DNA of 5,661 nt from a virus (taxonomy: Duplodnaviria; Heunggongvirae; Uroviricota; Caudoviricetes). Below the pieces are notes generated by a model. It worked only from the letters and a program-made list of their open reading frames with translations. It was not told where the DNA came from and did not search any database. The position numbers and the translations under genes are program-made. Below, one piece after another: positions 204-5,661 of this stretch (position 1 is the first letter of the stretch; every line of letters starts with the position of its first letter). The DNA is taken from IMG/VR virus record IMGVR_UViG_2778261667_000016; one strand, written 5' to 3'.

Positions 204-491
204 TTAACGGATAAACAGCCAGACCAGCAGACACGCCACCGCGGGCACCGCAAAATCCATCAGACTTGCCACATCCCATGCACGAGGATCAAAACCGCCC
301 CACCACGGCATGTTAATCCGCTTGCCATGCCCGAACATTTCAATCCAGCGATATTCTGCCTGGGTGTGTTCACGCGCAATGAAGAACGTACAACCGGCTA
401 TCGCCCCGTAAGCCCAGTTTCCGGTAAAAAGACCAATCAGTAGCTGCGCAGCCACAGCACAAAGTGCATGAAGGAAAGGTGTTATATCCAT
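204..491 (-). CDS. Hypothetical small integral membrane protein (about 95 aa, two predicted TM helices)
   Basis: ATG at 489-491 is preceded by AAAGGAGGAG (strong SD) and lies 13 nt downstream of the previous stop. The ORF-track start at 515 is a GTG that would overlap the upstream gene and is less likely. Hydrophobic segments FLHALCAVAAQLLIGLF/WAYGAIAGCTFFIA near the N-terminus and DFAVPAVACLLVWLFI at the C-terminus. Stop TAA at 204-206. I recognise no family. Confidence 0.6.
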   Translation of the reverse strand: MDITPFLHALCAVAAQLLIGLFTGNWAYGAIAGCTFFIAREHTQAEYRWIEMFGHGKRINMPWWGGFDPRAWDVASLMDFAVPAVACLLVWLFIR

Positions 492-504
492 TACTCCTCC
501 TTTA

Positions 505-1206
505 TCAGATATCACTTCGGGAAGTTGATAACAACTTTAATTCTGACTCAAGTTCATCAACTCTTTCAGTCAGTTTCTGGATATGGTGAATCAGTGGAAC
601 AACCAGACGTTCGTACATTACACCTTCGGCAACAAGGCCATTGCTGGAAATAGCTTCAGGAGCATCATCTTCGTTAGCTGGTCGCCAGTGTACAAACTGA
701 GGAGCAATTTCTCCCACTTCCTCGGCAATCAATCCGTAGAATCCCCAGTCACTCCTGTCATTTTCGCATTGCGACCTGTACCACACAGGGCGCATCCTGA
801 AAATGAGATCGGCGTGCTCTGAATCTATTGTCTCTACTGAATGTTTATAGCGAATAGACGATGTTGACCGCAGTACAGACGAAATTGCAGGGTCAGGATT
901 AAGATAAAGATTTGCCGCCGCTGTAGTCGTGCCCAATTCCCATAAATAAAACGCTTCACGGCCAGTCAGCGGGTAAAAATCTCCACCATAACGACCGCTT
1001 TCCAGATCGTTCACTTCCAGTTTGTTTTTCAGCTTATTATCAACTTCAGTTTTTGTGTATCTGGTGCTGATATCCTGCTTTGCACTGGTCATATCAGTCT
1101 GAAGCGTTGATACTTTTCCGTTAATTGAGGAAATATCTTCCTTAGTTTTACTGACATCTCCCTTTAGCGTGGTGATATCTCCTGGAATTACTGTCGATGT
1201 AGCCAT
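505..1206 (-). CDS. Small fiber-like protein (233 aa) with C-terminal intramolecular chaperone domain (peptidase S74 / chaperone-of-endosialidase type)
   Basis: ATG at 1204-1206 is preceded by GGGAGA (SD) 4 nt upstream. The N-terminal ~70 aa are a polar coiled-coil-like repeat (DITTLKGDVSKTKEDISSINGKVSTLQTDMTSAKQDISTRYTKTEVDNKL). Residues ~116-225 (nt 532-861) follow the intramolecular-chaperone pattern as I recall it: SSIRYKHSVETI (consensus S-D-x-R-x-K-x-N-I), LIFRMRPVWYR, GFYGLIAEEVGEIAPQFV (consensus G-F-I-A-Q-E-V), and YERLVVPLIHHIQKLTERVDELESEL (C-terminal helix). Stop TGA at 505-507. Confidence 0.75.
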   Translation of the reverse strand: MATSTVIPGDITTLKGDVSKTKEDISSINGKVSTLQTDMTSAKQDISTRYTKTEVDNKLKNKLEVNDLESGRYGGDFYPLTGREAFYLWELGTTTAAANLYLNPDPAISSVLRSTSSIRYKHSVETIDSEHADLIFRMRPVWYRSQCENDRSDWGFYGLIAEEVGEIAPQFVHWRPANEDDAPEAISSNGLVAEGVMYERLVVPLIHHIQKLTERVDELESELKLLSTSRSDI

Positions 1207-1215
1207 TTGTCTCCC

Positions 1216-1497
1216 TCACATCCAGCCACGAAGTTGATGCTCAACAACAACCGCGTATTTATCGAATATTGACGATTTTTTTGCATCATTAATGATGCGC
1301 ACGTTTACAAAATATCCGTCTTCCTTAACACATACCGGTTCGCCATCTTCAGTCAGTTCTCCGGTTTCTTTGTACACGTTACCTATCACGTCAATAAGAA
1401 TATTATCCTGCATCGACTCGTCATCATAATAGCCAGTGCTCTCCATAAAGGCCGAAAAGTCGGCCCTGTCTGCAAATTTGAGTGTTAAATCTTTCAT
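1216..1497 (-). CDS. Hypothetical small acidic protein (93 aa), translationally coupled to stf
   Basis: ATG at 1495-1497 overlaps the stf stop at 1497-1499 (TAATG on the coding strand). Stop TGA at 1216-1218, only 9 nt before the next gene. The product is acidic (many D/E), with no signal peptide or transmembrane segment. I recognise no family with confidence and it does not resemble lambda Tfa as I recall it. Confidence 0.6.
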   Translation of the reverse strand: MKDLTLKFADRADFSAFMESTGYYDDESMQDNILIDVIGNVYKETGELTEDGEPVCVKEDGYFVNVRIINDAKKSSIFDKYAVVVEHQLRGWM

Positions 1498-3878
1498 TAG
1501 ATTGACTCCCCCACCTGAGCATCAGTCAATGCCTTGTGCCATATTCTGAAATTCCTGACATGACCAAATAAATGACGTAACCCGGCAGTAGTCTGGCCTC
1601 CAATACGGATAATTGCGGTGTTCTGAATACAGGACCATGTGGTTTTTGTTTCGCTGGATATACGCCCGTTACTTACTGAGCACGTAGACTGATCTGACTT
1701 TACACGCATCCCCATAACCATTTTTTCAAGCGATGCGTTTTCGTTTACCCGTCTGTTAGCTCCTCCAATATCGCAATAAGGAAATCCGTCGTAATCTGTT
1801 GAACGACCGAAGCCAAGAATAATAGCCGCTCCGGTTTGATGACCGCCGGTGTCAAAAACACGCGGAGCTGCATTTGGCGTTTTATACCAGTTCTTATGTA
1901 CCTCACAAAGAACCGTAAAAGGAAGATTATAAAGATTATTCTTAATGGGAACTGTAACTATATCGCTTGCGCGGGTCGCCGCCGTCGTTCCTGATATAAT
2001 AAAAGATGATACACAAGGCCCATTTTCTACTTGTGGGGTGGCCAGATAAATATAGTCACCAGATACGGTTGCCCCGCCCTGCTTAGGAGAATACTGTATC
2101 TGAGAACCTATTTTTAACTCCCCATCAATTGCCTGAATTGTTGCCTCTGCAAAAATCCATCCGGTAGCTTCGTCCTTTCTGACTCTCGCAGTAATCCTTG
2201 AGGCAGCACCGCCTGTCATATTAATTTCAAGCGTTTGTGTATCAATATACGCATCACCAAGAAAAGTTGTTGCGCTACCGTCATATTTATCAAACCGGAT
2301 ACGCAACCTTACCTGCAGTTCTGTTTTAAAACGACATGAGGTTGTCACGTGTTTATTATCGCCTGAGACATCAACTGACTTTGTTGCAGCAATTGATGCC
2401 ATATTAATGGCTGAGGTTTGCCCAATCAGAGAATCGTTGCAGACAAACTTTCCATAGGTAAAACCAAAACTATCCGTCCCTGTTTCGGGCACATCCATAT
2501 TTGACGATCGCCCCCAACTGGCAGGGTTTTCCGAATTGAGCATGTAGTTTGTTCTTTGCCCCTCAATAAGCAGGCCATCACGTTCAAACCGTGGCTCGTC
2601 AATGGCAGCCTCTGTCAGCACACCAGATTTATTAATGTAAGTTGCTTTTGATGCGCGTTTAAACTTTACAACCTTATCGCCAGGCATCGTTATTTCATCA
2701 TCACCAATAACAATCTTTTTATATGACGGCGAAAAGCCCGTAATCATATCCAGTGAATCGTTAAACGGTATCCACACATCGGGAAGCGGCTGCAATACTT
2801 GTTTATACGGCTCCGCAGCCTGGCTTGCATACTCTCTGGCTGCGTCTTCACTTGCTTTTGCAGCCGTCTGGCTTGCAGCGGATGCTTTCGCCGAGTTAGC
2901 CGCCGCAGTCTCGCTCGCCTTTGCGTTGGTTTCACTGGTTTTTGCAGCTTTTTGACTGTTGGCTGATGCAGTGGCAAAAGCAGCCGCCGCGCTTGCAGAG
3001 CCAGCTGCAGCACTCTCGCTTTCGGCTGCTGCATCCTGACTGCTTTTCGCCGCAGTTTCACTGGCTTTGGCATTCGTTTCGCTGGTTTTCGCTGCCGTCT
3101 GGCTGGACTTTGCGTTGGTTTCGCTGGTTTTTGCAGCTTTTTGACTGTTGGCTGATGCAGTGGCAGAAGAAGCCGCCGCACTTGCAGAACCAGCTGCGGC
3201 ACTCTCGCTTTGGGCCGCTGCATCCTGGCTGTTTTTCGCCGCAGTTTCACTGGCTTTGGCATTCGTTTCGCTGGTTTTCGCTGCCGTCTGGCTGGACTTT
3301 GCGTTGGTTTCGCTCGTCTTTGCGGCTGTCTCGCTGTTTTTCGCATTGGTTTCTGATTTTTTGGCTGCTGTCGCGGAGTTTGCCGATGCAGTCTGTGAGG
3401 TCGCTGCCGCCTGTGCGCTGTTAGCTGCATTCGTTTCTGAGGTTTTCGCCGCGTTCTTCGATGATGCCGCTGCAGTTTCGGATTTCTTTGCCGCCGCTGC
3501 GCTCTGAGAGGCGGCTTCGGCGTTGCGTGCCGCTTCTTCCACCATTTCCTGAAAACGGCGCAATGCCTCCGGCATGACATCATCTTCCGTCATGGCACCG
3601 AGAAAATCATTCAGCGTCCCCGGACTGGAACCTTCATAGACGGTAATGGTCCCGGCATGTGAAGGCGGAAAACCTTCAACCAGCAGGGTGACGCTGTACT
3701 GGCCATACTCAACATCCATGCTGTAACGCCCGGCTTCATCCGGATTTTCAGAGGCCACTGTGTTGACCAGTACCGTGGTGCTGTTACGCTTTGCCTTCAG
3801 TTGAATAGTGCAGTTCTGTATTGGTTTTCCCGCACCATCTTTCAGCACACCTGAGATTTTTACTGCTGCCATATCCAC
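1497..3878 (-). CDS. stf: Side tail fiber protein, chimeric: lambda-Stf-like N-terminal anchor, Ala/Ser/Thr heptad-repeat shaft, non-lambda C-terminal putative lectin-like receptor-binding region
   Basis: 793-aa ORF. GGAG lies 7 nt upstream of ATG 3876-3878; an alternative ATG at 3870-3872 would give MAAVKISG. The first ~110 residues (AVKISGVLKDG.GKP.QNCTIQLKA.RNSTTV.VNTV.SENPDEAGRYSMDVEYGQYSV...GFPPSHAGTITVYE...PGTLNDFL.AMTEDD) match the N-terminus of lambda Stf as I recall it. Residues ~113-355 are AAKTSET-type heptads. The C-terminal ~440 aa contain segments such as EGQRTNYMLNSENPASW and a terminal LRHLFGHVRNFRIWHKALTDAQV that resemble concanavalin-A-like/LamG jelly-roll domains. Stop TAA at 1497-1499. 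Confidence 0.88.
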   Translation of the reverse strand: MDMAAVKISGVLKDGAGKPIQNCTIQLKAKRNSTTVLVNTVASENPDEAGRYSMDVEYGQYSVTLLVEGFPPSHAGTITVYEGSSPGTLNDFLGAMTEDDVMPEALRRFQEMVEEAARNAEAASQSAAAAKKSETAAASSKNAAKTSETNAANSAQAAATSQTASANSATAAKKSETNAKNSETAAKTSETNAKSSQTAAKTSETNAKASETAAKNSQDAAAQSESAAAGSASAAASSATASANSQKAAKTSETNAKSSQTAAKTSETNAKASETAAKSSQDAAAESESAAAGSASAAAAFATASANSQKAAKTSETNAKASETAAANSAKASAASQTAAKASEDAAREYASQAAEPYKQVLQPLPDVWIPFNDSLDMITGFSPSYKKIVIGDDEITMPGDKVVKFKRASKATYINKSGVLTEAAIDEPRFERDGLLIEGQRTNYMLNSENPASWGRSSNMDVPETGTDSFGFTYGKFVCNDSLIGQTSAINMASIAATKSVDVSGDNKHVTTSCRFKTELQVRLRIRFDKYDGSATTFLGDAYIDTQTLEINMTGGAASRITARVRKDEATGWIFAEATIQAIDGELKIGSQIQYSPKQGGATVSGDYIYLATPQVENGPCVSSFIISGTTAATRASDIVTVPIKNNLYNLPFTVLCEVHKNWYKTPNAAPRVFDTGGHQTGAAIILGFGRSTDYDGFPYCDIGGANRRVNENASLEKMVMGMRVKSDQSTCSVSNGRISSETKTTWSCIQNTAIIRIGGQTTAGLRHLFGHVRNFRIWHKALTDAQVGESI
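2814..3542. repeat. Array of degenerate 21-bp (heptad-coding) repeats inside stf
   Basis: Recurring DNA motifs (tttcgctggtttt, tttggcattcgtttc, gcagcttttt, etc.) with 21-bp periodicity. They translate in the stf frame to about 35 Ala/Ser/Thr-rich heptads (AAKTSET, NAKSSQT, NAKASET, AAAGSAS ...). Confidence 0.85.
2917..3326. repeat. Near-perfect 189-bp direct tandem duplication (about 2.1 copies) within the stf shaft repeats
   Basis: The string ggtttttgcagctttttgactgttggctgatgcagtggca occurs with gcagc at 2944 and again at 3133, an offset of 189 bp. The flanking sequence aligns over roughly 2917-3116 versus 3106-3315 with only scattered mismatches. At protein level stf residues 185-247 and 248-310 are 63-aa blocks differing at a handful of positions. 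Confidence 0.9.
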
Positions 3879-3883
3879 TCCAC

Positions 3884-3909
3884 AAAAAAGCCCGCCTGAA
3901 CCGGCGGGC
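3884..3909 (-). terminator. Rho-independent terminator between lom and stf
   Basis: GC-rich inverted repeat gcccgcc(3890-3896)/ggcgggc(3903-3909) with 6-nt loop. On the minus-strand transcript it is followed by UUUUUU (A-run 3884-3889 on the plus strand). It lies 28-53 nt downstream of the lom stop and is immediately followed by the stf ribosome-binding site. Confidence 0.75.
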
Positions 3910-3936
3910 TGTCATAACACTGTGTTACCTGGCTAA

Positions 3937-4536
3937 TCAGAATTTATAACCGACACCAACGATGAAACCGTCAGTGCGCCAGTCGCCACTGCCGGAACCT
4001 TCATAAGCAATATCAATGGCCACGGATTCGGTCGGGTTAAACTGCACGCCAGCCCCCCATGCCAGAGACGTGTCGCTGTGGCGACCGTCATCACTTCCGG
4101 TCAGCACATCGTGCGTTTTCCCCTTGTTGTCAGTTACGCGGATATAATCTCCGGAGAAAGTCGAAACACGGCTGTAAGCCATACCCGCCATCGCATACGC
4201 GCTGAACCATTCATTCACGCGCACAGACGGCCCCGCCATCACGCTGAACCAGCGGTTACGCACGGAATCTTCATGCCAGCGGGTATCGCTGTAATGGGTA
4301 AGCTGGCGATTCTTGTCTCCTGCATAGCTGAATGACGTCACCAGCCCCAGTGTGTCCGTAAACTCATAACGGTATTTCACGTTAATCCCGTTAAGATCAT
4401 CGCTGCCGGGAACGTTCGTCGAGGCATGAAGATACCCCGCGCTCAGCGTGGACTGATGTTCAGATGCCCATGCAGGCGCACCGGATACGGCCAGACAGAT
4501 GGCTGCGGAAAAAATGGCGGCATAAAGTTTACGCAT
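3937..4536 (-). CDS. lom: Lom/Ail/PagC/OmpX-family outer membrane beta-barrel protein (lambda Lom homolog)
   Basis: 199-aa ORF with ATG at 4534-4536 and SD-like GAGG 5 nt upstream. N-terminal signal peptide [25 protein letters not shown]-terminal segment [25 protein letters not shown] is the conserved last strand of lambda Lom and the Ail/Lom family, ending in the aromatic residue typical of outer-membrane barrels. Position between J and stf matches lambda. Confidence 0.92.
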
Positions 4537-4558: not shown

Positions 4559-4584
4559 ATAAAAAAGGCACCATTTCTGGTGCC
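4559..4584 (-). terminator. Rho-independent terminator between J and lom
   Basis: Inverted repeat ggcacca(4567-4573)/tggtgcc(4578-4584) with 4-nt loop. On the minus-strand transcript the hairpin is followed directly by a U-run (A-run on the plus strand at 4561-4566). It lies 22-47 nt downstream of the J stop codon. Confidence 0.7.
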
Positions 4585-4605
4585 CTTATATGGGTTATAA
4601 CAATT

Positions 4606-5661
4606 TCAACGAATACTGATGCCGGAAGCGGCTTTTTTGGTCACAATCACCGTACAGTCGGTGATATTACCTGCCCACTGATTGCCTTTATGGAAAACCT
4701 TAAACTCCAGAGTGACGCTTCCCCTGCCACTCGGCATATCAATAACCGCACTGTAGCTACCGGGAATGGCCCCTTTAGTTTCTCTGGATGCGATTAATAC
4801 ACCGTTTTTGCGAACTTCAAAACCATAACCCGTGTATCTTGTACCTCCCGGGTTATTACCACTTCCCGGATCGCTATACGCTATTCCGTTAAAGATAATG
4901 GGCGGAATAATGATTTGACGGTCAAAGTTATGATCATCGCTGATGGTGACTGTAACCGTCCCGTTTGGTGTTTCCGTGTTACCCCACGTACCAGCCTGTT
5001 TCGGAAATGATTTGGATACAGCTTTAACGAAGTCACCTCTGACCTGAGTCGCCTCCAGCATGCCCTTAATCGTACAGTTCTGGTTAATCGTGACATTGTT
5101 GAGCGTTCCTGAGTTCGCATTCACACTACCACTGATATCCGCATTTTTAGCGGTCAGCTTTCCGTCTGATGTCAGGGAAAATACCGGAGGACTGCCACCG
5201 CTGGTAATGGTGGGGGCTGTCAGGCGCTTCAGGAACACGTCGTTCATGAATATCTGGTTGCCCTGCGCCACAAACATCGGCGTTTCATTCCCGTTTGCCG
5301 GGTCAATAAACGCGATACGGTTAGCGGCAACCAGAAACTGGCTCAGCTTGCCTTCCTCCGTGTCCTCCATGCTGAGGCCAATACCCGCGACATAATGTTT
5401 GCCGTCTTTGGTCTGCTCAATTTTGACGCCCCACATGGCATTCCATTTATCGTTAGCGTCCTTCCACTCTTTCGAAAACTCATCCAGTCTGCTGGCGTTA
5501 TCCTCCGTCAGATCAACTTTTTCCAGCAGCTCTTTACCGAGATGGGATTCGGTTATCTTGCCTTTGAAAAAATCCAGGTAACCTTCCGCATCATCGCTCG
5601 CCCGACCGACGGCCTCCACGAATGCCGATTTGCCAACGGTGTTCACACTGCGGATATAAAA
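4606..5661 (-). CDS. J: Host specificity / central tail fiber protein J, C-terminal part (partial; N-terminus lies beyond the window edge)
   Basis: Minus-strand reading frame stays open through position 5661, so the M at 5646 in the ORF track is an internal GTG codon, not the real start. Stop TGA at 4606-4608. Sits immediately upstream of lom and stf exactly as in the lambda gene order J-lom-stf, and the proximal part resembles the distal region of lambda gpJ as far as I recall it. Confidence 0.8.

Follow-up and report, generated by a model that had tools for sequence, protein, structure and literature searches.

What do the three small genes that follow stf in a lambda-like prophage encode, and do they belong together? 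The question is raised by a 5,661-nt stretch of viral DNA (IMG/VR record IMGVR_UViG_2778261667_000016), referred to here as the window, which is the tail end of an Escherichia lambda-like prophage with all genes on the minus strand. The three genes, designated g93, g233 and g95 after the lengths of their products in amino acids (aa), had been predicted from the letters of the window alone to form one module of an acidic protein, a miniature self-processing fibre and a small membrane protein, serving either as a second adhesin or as a lysogenic-conversion or exclusion cassette. The analysis reported here suggests a different partition, namely a modular two-part side tail fibre followed by an unrelated passenger gene. 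This statement as a whole appears rather probable to us; the part of it that makes g93 and g233 lateral-fibre components or assembly factors is held with greater assurance, and confidence in any specific activity of g95 is low.

Gene order and conservation of the module

The features on which the argument depends are the following.

1497-3878, minus strand: stf, proximal side tail fibre, 793 aa
1216-1497, minus strand: g93, 93 aa
505-1206, minus strand: g233, 233 aa
204-491, minus strand: g95, 95 aa
1142-1600, minus strand: junction block, comprising the last ~34 codons of stf, the whole of g93 and the first ~21 codons of g233

The stop codon of stf (TAA, 1499-1497) and the ATG of g93 (1497-1495) overlap by 1 nt, giving TAATG at 1499-1495. 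The g93 stop codon (TGA, 1218-1216) is followed by a 9-nt gap (1215-1207; GGGAGACAA) with a Shine-Dalgarno sequence and by the g233 ATG at 1206, and the g233 stop codon (TGA, 507-505) by a 13-nt gap (504-492; TAAAGGAGGAGTA), again with a Shine-Dalgarno sequence, and by the g95 ATG at 491. Coordinates, overlap and gaps all agree with those originally given. The third gene appears in the list of open reading frames (ORFs) as a 103-aa version with a GTG start (204-515) but is taken here to encode 95 aa, because its homologues all begin with MDITP or MDISP. As a simple consensus scan of the coding strand detected no sigma-70 promoter and no intrinsic terminator inside the module, the three genes read as the distal end of the stf transcription unit; no RNA families were found inside the module. 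The placement of the module in the tfa position was likewise borne out, and no Tfa-like ORF or Tfa match was detected in the window with Pfam, NCBIfam or six-frame translation, including the 203 bases downstream.

All three genes are kept as proteins under purifying selection. The ratios of non-synonymous to synonymous substitution rates (dN/dS) against related IMG/VR loci are 0.43 for g93, 0.15 for g95 and 0.15 for g233, the last resting on only five same-length comparisons. Pseudogenisation in most relatives, a prospect raised with the original prediction, is not what the survey returned, the S74 fibre gene being intact in 79 of the 80 closest IMG/VR loci.

Stf, g93, g233 and the junction between them

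The N-terminus of Stf matches PF08400 phage_tail_N (E 1.1e-65) and the solved lambda-type fibre stub 9e7m (E 1.2e-48), and its middle is an Ala-rich repeat shaft. Residues 437-637 match NF048003 GTA_spike_fiber (E 7.6e-14; 52.6 bits against the NCBIfam cut-off of 36), and the C-terminus is a LamG-like domain that ends ...RHLFGHVRNFRIWHKALTDAQVGESI, a motif common to T5-, T1- and 9g-like fibres (...RHLFGHIRNFRIWHKxLTD). NF048003 is present in the window Stf and in all eight further fibres tested, four of which are encoded directly upstream of phage g93 homologues, three upstream of g93-like genes and one directly upstream of a g95 homologue. The combined GTA-spike and LamG-like head is found whatever N-terminal attachment domain a fibre has. 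Among the fibre proteins of the window, phage_tail_N is confined to Stf; g233 lacks an attachment domain but possesses an anchor peptide. Judged from its domains, the locus belongs with separately encoded fibre proteins of the LtfA/LtfB type, in which only the first carries a tail-attachment domain.

By position g93 resembles a Tfa protein, being encoded directly downstream of the fibre gene that it would serve and overlapping it at TAATG. It is acidic, as predicted (isoelectric point, pI, 4.37; 19 D+E against 10 K+R), and its only PHROG matches are phrog_1361 and phrog_18574, both of unknown function. No Pfam or NCBIfam match was obtained at E<=1, so that membership of the Tfa, DUF4376 or Caudo_TAP families was not found, and PADLOC returned none; single-sequence and profile searches of the PDB, made for both g93 and g95, gave only chance-level matches (GAPDH and RUS1). 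Both proteins are named 'hypothetical protein' in every source, and a search of a literature library retrieved no paper assigning a function to the 92-aa or 95-aa proteins (the Eligo STF paper, the Tai paper and a receptor-prediction preprint have no bearing on this locus), in agreement with the earlier statement that the proteins flanking g233 have no described function. The AlphaFold2 model of g93 is a small alpha/beta domain (predicted local distance difference test, pLDDT, 82.6), and the invariant residues L89, R90 and W92 lie in its low-confidence C-terminal tail, which in the model has features typical of a peptide that folds onto a partner.

Homologues of g93 were identified with tblastn in 181 phage records. 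Those of lambda-like phages and the virulent Nonagvirus ESCO3 are closest to the window protein (83-91% identity), followed by those of T1-like Drexlerviridae and other lambdoids (about 50%), of Nonagvirus JenP2 and Dhillonvirus (42-48%), of T5-like phages, IrisVonRoten among them (about 37%), and of rV5-like myoviruses (about 36%). In every locus opened the homologue lies directly 3' of a lateral-fibre gene and usually overlaps it, so that position and stop-start overlap are kept in six phage groups (lambda-, T1-, 9g-, Dhillonvirus-, T5- and rV5-like). Since g93 is also retained where the distal fibre is absent, as in phages 21, ev207, ev243, rolling and EmilHeitz, it appears to belong primarily to the fibre head, with the distal fibre depending on the pair of fibre and g93.

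The description of the middle protein as a miniature self-processing fibre held up, with cleavage being predicted from its sequence. Peptidase_S74 (PF13884) matches g233 at aa 116-172 above its cut-off (E 6.9e-06; 26.7 bits against 22). The C-terminal domain also aligns with the C-terminal chaperone domain of DT57C LtfA (phmmer E 1.6e-07), S116-S-I-R-Y-K121 of g233 being matched by S-G-I-E-Y-K of LtfA, which places a Lys five residues after the Ser of a Ser116/Lys121 dyad. The protein consists of an anchor peptide (MATSTVIPGDITTLKG), a coiled coil at about aa 10-65, a tip of ~50 residues (aa 66-115) and the S74 chaperone (aa 116-233). The coiled-coil segment is heptad-like, with matches to the P22 needle gp26 (E 0.004), the Lpp zipper and the tail needle phrog_1219. 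After self-cleavage the mature product is predicted to be aa 1-115, with 12.5 kDa per chain. An identical 233-aa protein is deposited as WP_105266311.1 under the name 'tail fiber domain-containing protein [unclassified Escherichia]', and full-length homologues with 57-61% identity are present in about 45 T1-like phages, where they were annotated (in BASEL and elsewhere) as 'putative lateral tail fiber chaperone' or 'chaperone of endosialidase'.

The first ~16-30 residues of g233 are common to otherwise unrelated fibres that end in S74 domains. Such cassettes of 346 aa (Tritos and PhiR11_1), 351 aa (ESCO3) and 574 aa (Gp24 of IrisVonRoten) share with g233 only the anchor and the chaperone domain. 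g233 is an optional element, for which cassettes of 233, 346 or 574 aa are interchangeable. A search with a 32-residue anchor peptide retrieved 62 phage records, against the 181 for g93, and the anchor-bearing fibre gene begins 10-20 nt after the g93 homologue in the phages whose coordinates were compared (tunus, swan01, JenP2 and SECphi27). The whole of g233 aligns to the last 240 positions of the 1,385-position phrog_3299 profile. In some phages the distal module is probably fused in frame to a long fibre, which would make these the single-polypeptide and split versions of one fibre.

The region linking the two fibre genes behaves differently from the sequences on its sides. The sole stretch common to the window and the virulent ESCO3 is 1142-1600, with 94% nucleotide identity, and Tritos-type phages match the window in two pieces, the junction block and g95, with a different distal-fibre body between them. 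Co-variation of g93 identity with that of neighbouring segments was assessed by Spearman correlation over 58 non-identical IMG/VR loci, with the following results.

g93 and the last 40 aa of Stf: rho 0.72
g93 and the first 30 aa of the distal fibre: rho 0.50
g93 and the interior of the Stf GTA-spike domain: rho 0.28
g93 and the interior of the distal fibre: rho 0.20
g93 and the interior of the Stf LamG-like domain: rho 0.19

Two types of g93 and two types of distal fibre occur in all combinations among the 80 closest IMG/VR loci. By these alignments the junction block is conserved as one unit and the receptor-binding parts on either side vary. Such co-variation is what would be expected of a conserved three-protein joint between two exchangeable receptor-binding cassettes, the physical joint itself being an inference.

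The trio is real and common rather than a lambdoid oddity. The 1.3-kb module was identified at a coverage of at least 80% in 723 of 5,426 complete E. coli genomes (about 13%), one of which is a T7 Express strain that we take to be B-derived, and also in the isolated viable temperate phages IdasGreatGrand, PhiR49_1, PhiR55_1, PhiR11_1, Tritos, 2G7b and HannyBb. The proposed co-occurrence of the three genes is upheld among the 80 closest IMG/VR loci, 79 of which have stf, g93, an S74 fibre and g95 and one stf, g93 and g95, and it fails in wider comparison; the IMG/VR scan with closer alignment matched E. coli-type loci only. The order of GTA-spike fibre, ~92-aa protein and (S74 fibre) was found in the lambda-like IdasGreatGrand, Tritos, PhiR49_1, PhiR55_1 and PhiR11_1, in Nonagvirus ESCO3 and JenP2, in the Drexlerviridae KarlJaspers and about 40 others, and in the T5-like IrisVonRoten; in the Dhillonvirus rolling and the rV5-like EmilHeitz the ~92-aa gene follows the fibre gene and no S74 fibre is present. 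The virulent T1-, 9g- and T5-like phages examined carry g93 and the S74 fibre and lack g95. Lysogenic conversion is therefore excluded as the role of g93 and g233, for which the other proposal, a second adhesin or receptor-binding accessory, is the one retained, and the three genes as one block of lysogenic-conversion cargo were rejected on the same ground.

The closest described analogues are LtfA and LtfB of phages DT57C and DT571/2, a fibre of two separately encoded proteins as proposed here, in which genetic data from DT57C indicate that LtfB attaches to the virion through LtfA (PMC4728585, PMC10713586). Both proteins have C-terminal S74 chaperones and provide two independent receptor specificities, both for O-antigen. 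However, a ~92-aa protein encoded between ltfA and ltfB has not been described, the window Stf ends in a GTA-spike/LamG head where LtfA has an S74 domain, and sequence similarity does not extend beyond the repeats and the chaperone domain. The attachment site for LtfB is also not at the C-terminal end of LtfA, unlike the joint proposed here. In a fibre of Drexlerviridae that bears an S74 domain, two residues were reported to change O-antigen-dependent host range (PMC12090712).

The locus of IrisVonRoten (Bas32) is truly homologous to the arrangement of stf, g93 and distal fibre in its entirety; in it Gp22 was modelled as a proximal fibre with a 'galectin-like' end and Gp24 as a T-shaped distal fibre; the 92-aa Gp23 was not discussed (Humolli et al., 10.1101/2024.09.12.612763). 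Over 744 aligned columns (window Stf 133-793) Gp22 and Stf are 52% identical, and they share the C-terminal motif; Gp23 has 37% identity to g93, and Gp24 starts with MVTKTVIPTDITKLK and ends in an S74 domain. The two loci differ in that Gp24 has 574 aa and two receptor-binding domains, against the 233 aa and ~50-aa tip of g233, and in that IrisVonRoten has no g95 homologue.

In lambda Stf/Tfa and with the assembly proteins of Mu and P2 type (North et al. 2019, cited in PMC12090712), a small gene directly downstream of the fibre gene is needed for the fibre tip, and in some phages the product stays on the tip. The N-terminal attachment domain of lambda Stf is the same as in the window, but g93 has no sequence similarity to Tfa or DUF4376, and the lambda Stf tip is of the lambda/T4 gp37-like type, whereas the window head is of the GTA-spike/LamG lectin type. 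The S74 domains of K1F endosialidase and T5 pb1 share with g233 the Ser and the Lys at +5 at the domain start and the C-terminal helix behind it. Their passengers are a large beta-helical enzyme or a long fibre, in contrast to the ~115-aa coiled-coil stub of g233, for which cleavage is predicted.

Several side observations concern the same genes. A 189-bp tandem repeat in stf (2901-3327; 2.3 copies, 92% match, with nested 21- and 42-bp periods) encodes the Ala-rich shaft 'KTSETNAKxSxTAA', and related Stf proteins of 698-793 aa differ in length mainly at the repeats, which suggests that shaft length varies by repeat gain and loss. The earlier part of the phrog_3299 profile resembles the Stf shaft. 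In Lambda_4C10 (6737-9153) three mobile-element ORFs stand between an stf reduced to 642 aa and the g92 and g97 homologues, which are intact; Lambda_4C10 was isolated as a viable phage despite this insertion, as would fit a side fibre that is dispensable on the isolation host. A conserved Gly-rich protein of ~235 aa, which ends ...PTPPTGCCG(C) and is annotated as 'putative sugar-binding protein', follows the S74 distal fibre in the virulent 9g-like ESCO3 (1295-2005) and the T1-like KarlJaspers (5836-6537) and stands where lambdoids have g95.

The g95 family and its genomic contexts

The third protein is of membrane type, as had been predicted. It is hydrophobic (grand average of hydropathy, GRAVY, +0.57), and its AlphaFold2 model has three long helices at 4-23, 26-53 and 74-94 (pLDDT 94.7), from which a three-helix inner-membrane protein is predicted. 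It belongs to phrog_1443 (E 4.9e-57), a PHROG of unknown function. At 50% identity its family comprises 446 clusters, homologues were confirmed at 433 IMG/VR loci, and the invariant motif is H8...G-R40-E41-x-x-Q44-A-E46-Y-R-W...W72...P83. A loop that is conserved and carries positive charge (R40 E41 x x Q44 A E46 Y R W ... R58 ... P W W G G F ... W72) joins helices 2 and 3, and by the positive-inside rule it is presumably cytoplasmic. An exhaustive profile search of the family retrieved no relatives other than small stand-alone proteins and did not connect it to any larger annotated family; no Pfam family was found, including scans of 56 and 85 diverse members, nor any NCBIfam family, and neither PDB sequence profiles nor Foldseek gave a match of significance. 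The GC content of g95 is 52.8%, against 41-44% for g93 and g233.

The contexts of g95 are varied. It was found after P22-like tailspikes and before int (Gally and JEP4), after a P2/HP1-type S74 fibre (Leclercia), after an S74/pectate-lyase fibre (Desulfovibrio), after DUF4376 Tfa-like proteins (Pantoea and Comamonas, by Pfam or PHROG matches), after Tfa-like proteins in Halomonas (identified by eye, and by annotation for phiHAP-1), after a LamG fibre (Chelativorans), after J (Comamonas), and between two tailspikes in one virulent Ackermannviridae genome. Chromosomal copies adjoin pirin in all five Aeromonas genomes found and directly follow ligA, the DNA ligase gene, in several sphingomonads (metagenome-assembled genomes and Sphingomonas arvum); because these copies are stable, a cellular gene is probably either the ancestor or a descendant of the phage gene. 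On these contexts g95 is best described as a separate mobile gene that travels independently and ends receptor-binding operons of unrelated types. The single three-gene unit of the original prediction consequently dissolves at both ends, g93 occurring without g233 in the five phages named above and g95 occurring with unrelated receptor-binding genes and on chromosomes.

In Comamonas and Pantoea prophages a GTA-spike fibre gene is followed by a g93-like gene and then by a g95 homologue, with overlapping stops and starts. The g93-like identity is given by hhalign (probability 90.9%, E 1.1e-06) and by phrog_18574, which both proteins match. This order suggests that g95 has long been associated with the GTA-spike fibre type without being restricted to it.

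The 3' end of receptor-binding operons is a hot spot, occupied by Z/fun in P2, by gtrABC in P22, by cor in phi80 and N15, and by effector genes in prophages of enterohaemorrhagic E. coli (EHEC). The position of g95 is like that of T5 Llp, phi80/N15 Cor, the LptD-binding exclusion factor of Rtp, P2 Z/fun, P22 gtrABC and HK97 gp15, and g95 is a small envelope protein, like the genes at that position that act on the host cell. In phiHAP-1 the homologue lies between Tfa and the sheath gene, the place of Z/fun in P2, and in P22-like phages between tailspike and int, the place of gtrABC in P22. However, no sequence or fold similarity of g95 to Llp, Cor, the Rtp factor, Z/fun, gtrABC or gp15 was found, and g95 is also chromosomal. 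As it is highly conserved beside unrelated receptor-binding proteins, g95 cannot have receptor specificity of the kind that Llp and Cor have. A guess, weakly held, is that it acts on the envelope or on phage entry in the infected or lysogenic cell, for instance by blocking superinfection or by changing surface-glycan export.

Proposed fibre architecture, alternatives and flanking regions

The best reading of the locus is that Stf bears a second receptor-binding tip made by g93 and g233, by analogy with LtfA/LtfB. Stf would be the proximal fibre, ending in a lectin-type head of GTA_spike_fiber and LamG-like domains, and g93, translationally coupled to stf, would be the obligate partner of this head, binding the extreme Stf C-terminus as an assembly factor that replaces the missing Tfa, as a joint that stays on the tip, or as both. 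The N-terminal peptide of g233 would dock on the joint of Stf end and g93, making g233 an optional distal or branch fibre that trimerises via its coiled coil with the help of the C-terminal S74 chaperone. This chaperone would then cut itself off at Ser116, leaving a stub of ~12.5 kDa per chain with a second exchangeable receptor-binding tip. g95 would stand outside the fibre as a small inner-membrane protein encoded by the last gene of receptor-binding operons.

Several points weigh against this architecture. Linkage and recombination breakpoints alone could produce the co-variation of the junction block, at least in part. The physical interactions in the scheme, among them the presence of g93 in virions and its contact with Stf and g233, are inferred from what was observed, that is from gene anatomy, family memberships, co-occurrence, purifying selection and predicted folds, and the same is true of any g95 activity. 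The mature g233 stub with its ~50-aa tip is very small and may be a cap rather than a receptor binder, and 'lateral tail fiber chaperone' is the name given to g233 homologues in some databases. For g95, no similarity to known exclusion or defence proteins was found with PADLOC, Pfam or PDB sequence and fold searches, and its coupling to late genes together with its presence in a virulent Ackermannviridae genome fits poorly with a classical moron expressed in the lysogen.

It is possible, if on the doubtful side, that g93 is a purely non-structural chaperone for the Stf head, an analogue of Tfa that is absent from virions, and that g233 docks on Stf directly. That g93 accompanies the GTA-spike/LamG head type even where no distal fibre follows would agree with this, as would its tfa position and translational coupling to stf in a window that has no Tfa, and its being small and acidic like many chaperones. 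Such a role nevertheless leaves unexplained why the anchor peptide is found only beside g93 and why anchor identity tracks that of g93 (rho 0.50), and g93 has no similarity to the Tfa/DUF4376 families; it also overlaps with the joint model, which allows both roles. An unlikely alternative for g233 is that it acts as a chaperone in trans, or is a degenerate 3' remnant of a longer fibre gene left by recombination, as might be suspected from its alignment to the C-terminal 240 residues of the 1,385-aa phrog_3299 profile, from the chaperone annotations in BASEL and by other annotators, and from a chaperone domain that makes up more than half of the protein. A remnant would not be expected to have its own Shine-Dalgarno sequence and ATG, to remain intact in all but one of the 80 closest IMG/VR loci as well as in about 45 virulent T1-like phages, or to give a dN/dS of 0.15, albeit from five comparisons, and a pseudogene fragment was rejected because g233 is intact and under constraint in relatives. 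S74 domains act in cis, as in K1F endosialidase and T5 pb1. Moreover, g233 shares its anchor with relatives of 346-574 aa that bear clear receptor-binding domains (10.1101/2024.09.12.612763).

Two further explanations concern g95. That fibre function or assembly requires g95, so that the three genes would make up a single obligate functional cassette, seems improbable to us, despite the constant order of stf, g93, S74 fibre and g95 in 79 of 80 loci, a packing that leaves no room for separate promoters, and the Comamonas and Pantoea order of GTA-spike fibre, g93-like and g95-like genes, in which stops and starts overlap. The virulent T1-, 9g- and T5-like phages examined do without g95, it also stands behind unrelated receptor-binding proteins and on the chromosomes of Aeromonas and sphingomonads, and a membrane location is hard to square with cytoplasmic fibre assembly. 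Least probable of all is a role in lysis, as a holin or an antiholin-like timing factor. Three transmembrane helices in ~95 aa are reminiscent of class I holins, g95 lies within the late operon, single family members have weak Phage_holin_8 matches (E ~0.003), and the Comamonas homologue is directly upstream of ORFs read by eye as membrane proteins, an endolysin and spanins. Yet these holin matches are below threshold and confined to 1 of 85 members, the three predicted helices are not followed by a charged C-terminal tail, and a cytoplasmic loop extremely conserved over alpha-, beta-, gamma- and deltaproteobacteria, together with stable chromosomal copies, is not typical of holins; lambdoid and P22-like phages that carry g95 encode lysis functions of their own in cassettes elsewhere. 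In the Comamonas prophages (L009:6300-8033, L125:5258-6524 and L110:5773-6620) the g95 homologue lies between the fibre genes and apparent holin-like membrane proteins, endolysin and spanins, ORFs which were read by eye and which form the sole context hinting at lysis.

The two-part fibre favoured here is not categorically new, since multi-protein lateral-fibre architecture is already in the literature (PMC4728585; 10.1101/2024.09.12.612763). What appears not to have been described so far is the invariable pairing of the g93 family with GTA-spike/LamG heads in six phage groups, the conserved junction block with its plug-in anchor peptide, and the g95 family with its placement beside receptor-binding genes. 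A tentative claim that combines these is that g93 (phrog_1361/18574) represents a new class of fibre joint capping GTA-spike/LamG heads and that g95 represents a host-derived inner-membrane family with a common envelope-directed function. If so, g93 would be a universal socket for distal fibres that start MxTxTVIPxDIxxLK, a standard swap interface in at least six phage groups, and a host-derived g95 family would have been set at the end of receptor-binding operons by phages of all three tail morphotypes.

The range of O-antigen or capsule types open to a phage is set by its lateral tail fibres, which are also the main target of host-range engineering, in lambda-based delivery particles as well as in therapeutic phages. 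If the joint exists, exchange boundaries for receptor-binding cassettes would lie near window position 1600 in stf and near 1142 in the distal-fibre gene, and g93 would have to be co-transferred with the head type, as Tfa is with lambda-type tips. With the module in about 13% of complete E. coli genomes, many prophage fibres would come under this rule. The g95 family is clean and well conserved and has a confident three-helix model, and its repeated placement beside receptor-binding genes makes a specific role testable by simple expression and deletion.

The remainder of the window holds the following features.

4606-5646, minus strand: J, C-terminal third
3937-4536, minus strand: lom, with intrinsic terminators on both sides (4587-4564 and 3910-3889)
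1-213, no strand assigned: junction beyond the 3' end of g95, variable; at ~214 most related prophages cease to resemble the window

The two strong terminator-like hairpins that bracket lom on the minus strand lie after J (4564-4587) and after lom (3889-3910), and a terminator-bracketed gene is the classic layout of a moron. With these hairpins in place, stf and the three small genes would depend entirely on antiterminated late transcription or on a promoter that escaped detection. Most E. coli matches to the window start at 214, and a few (IdasGreatGrand and PhiR11_1) reach 47-49. Six-frame translation of 1-215 gave no Tfa remnant and no long ORF, whereas one related prophage does have a Tfa remnant; others have at this position sitABCD, a Bcr/CflA efflux transporter gene, or a recombinase gene (PinR) followed by integrase genes. 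sitABCD, a complete iron/manganese transporter operon, lies directly downstream of the g95 homologue on the opposite strand in Lambda_4C10, ev207, phage 21 and one related prophage. It constitutes a large metabolic cargo at the very junction (about window position 214) where similarity to the window stops, and Lambda_4C10, ev207 and 21 are viable lambdoid phages.

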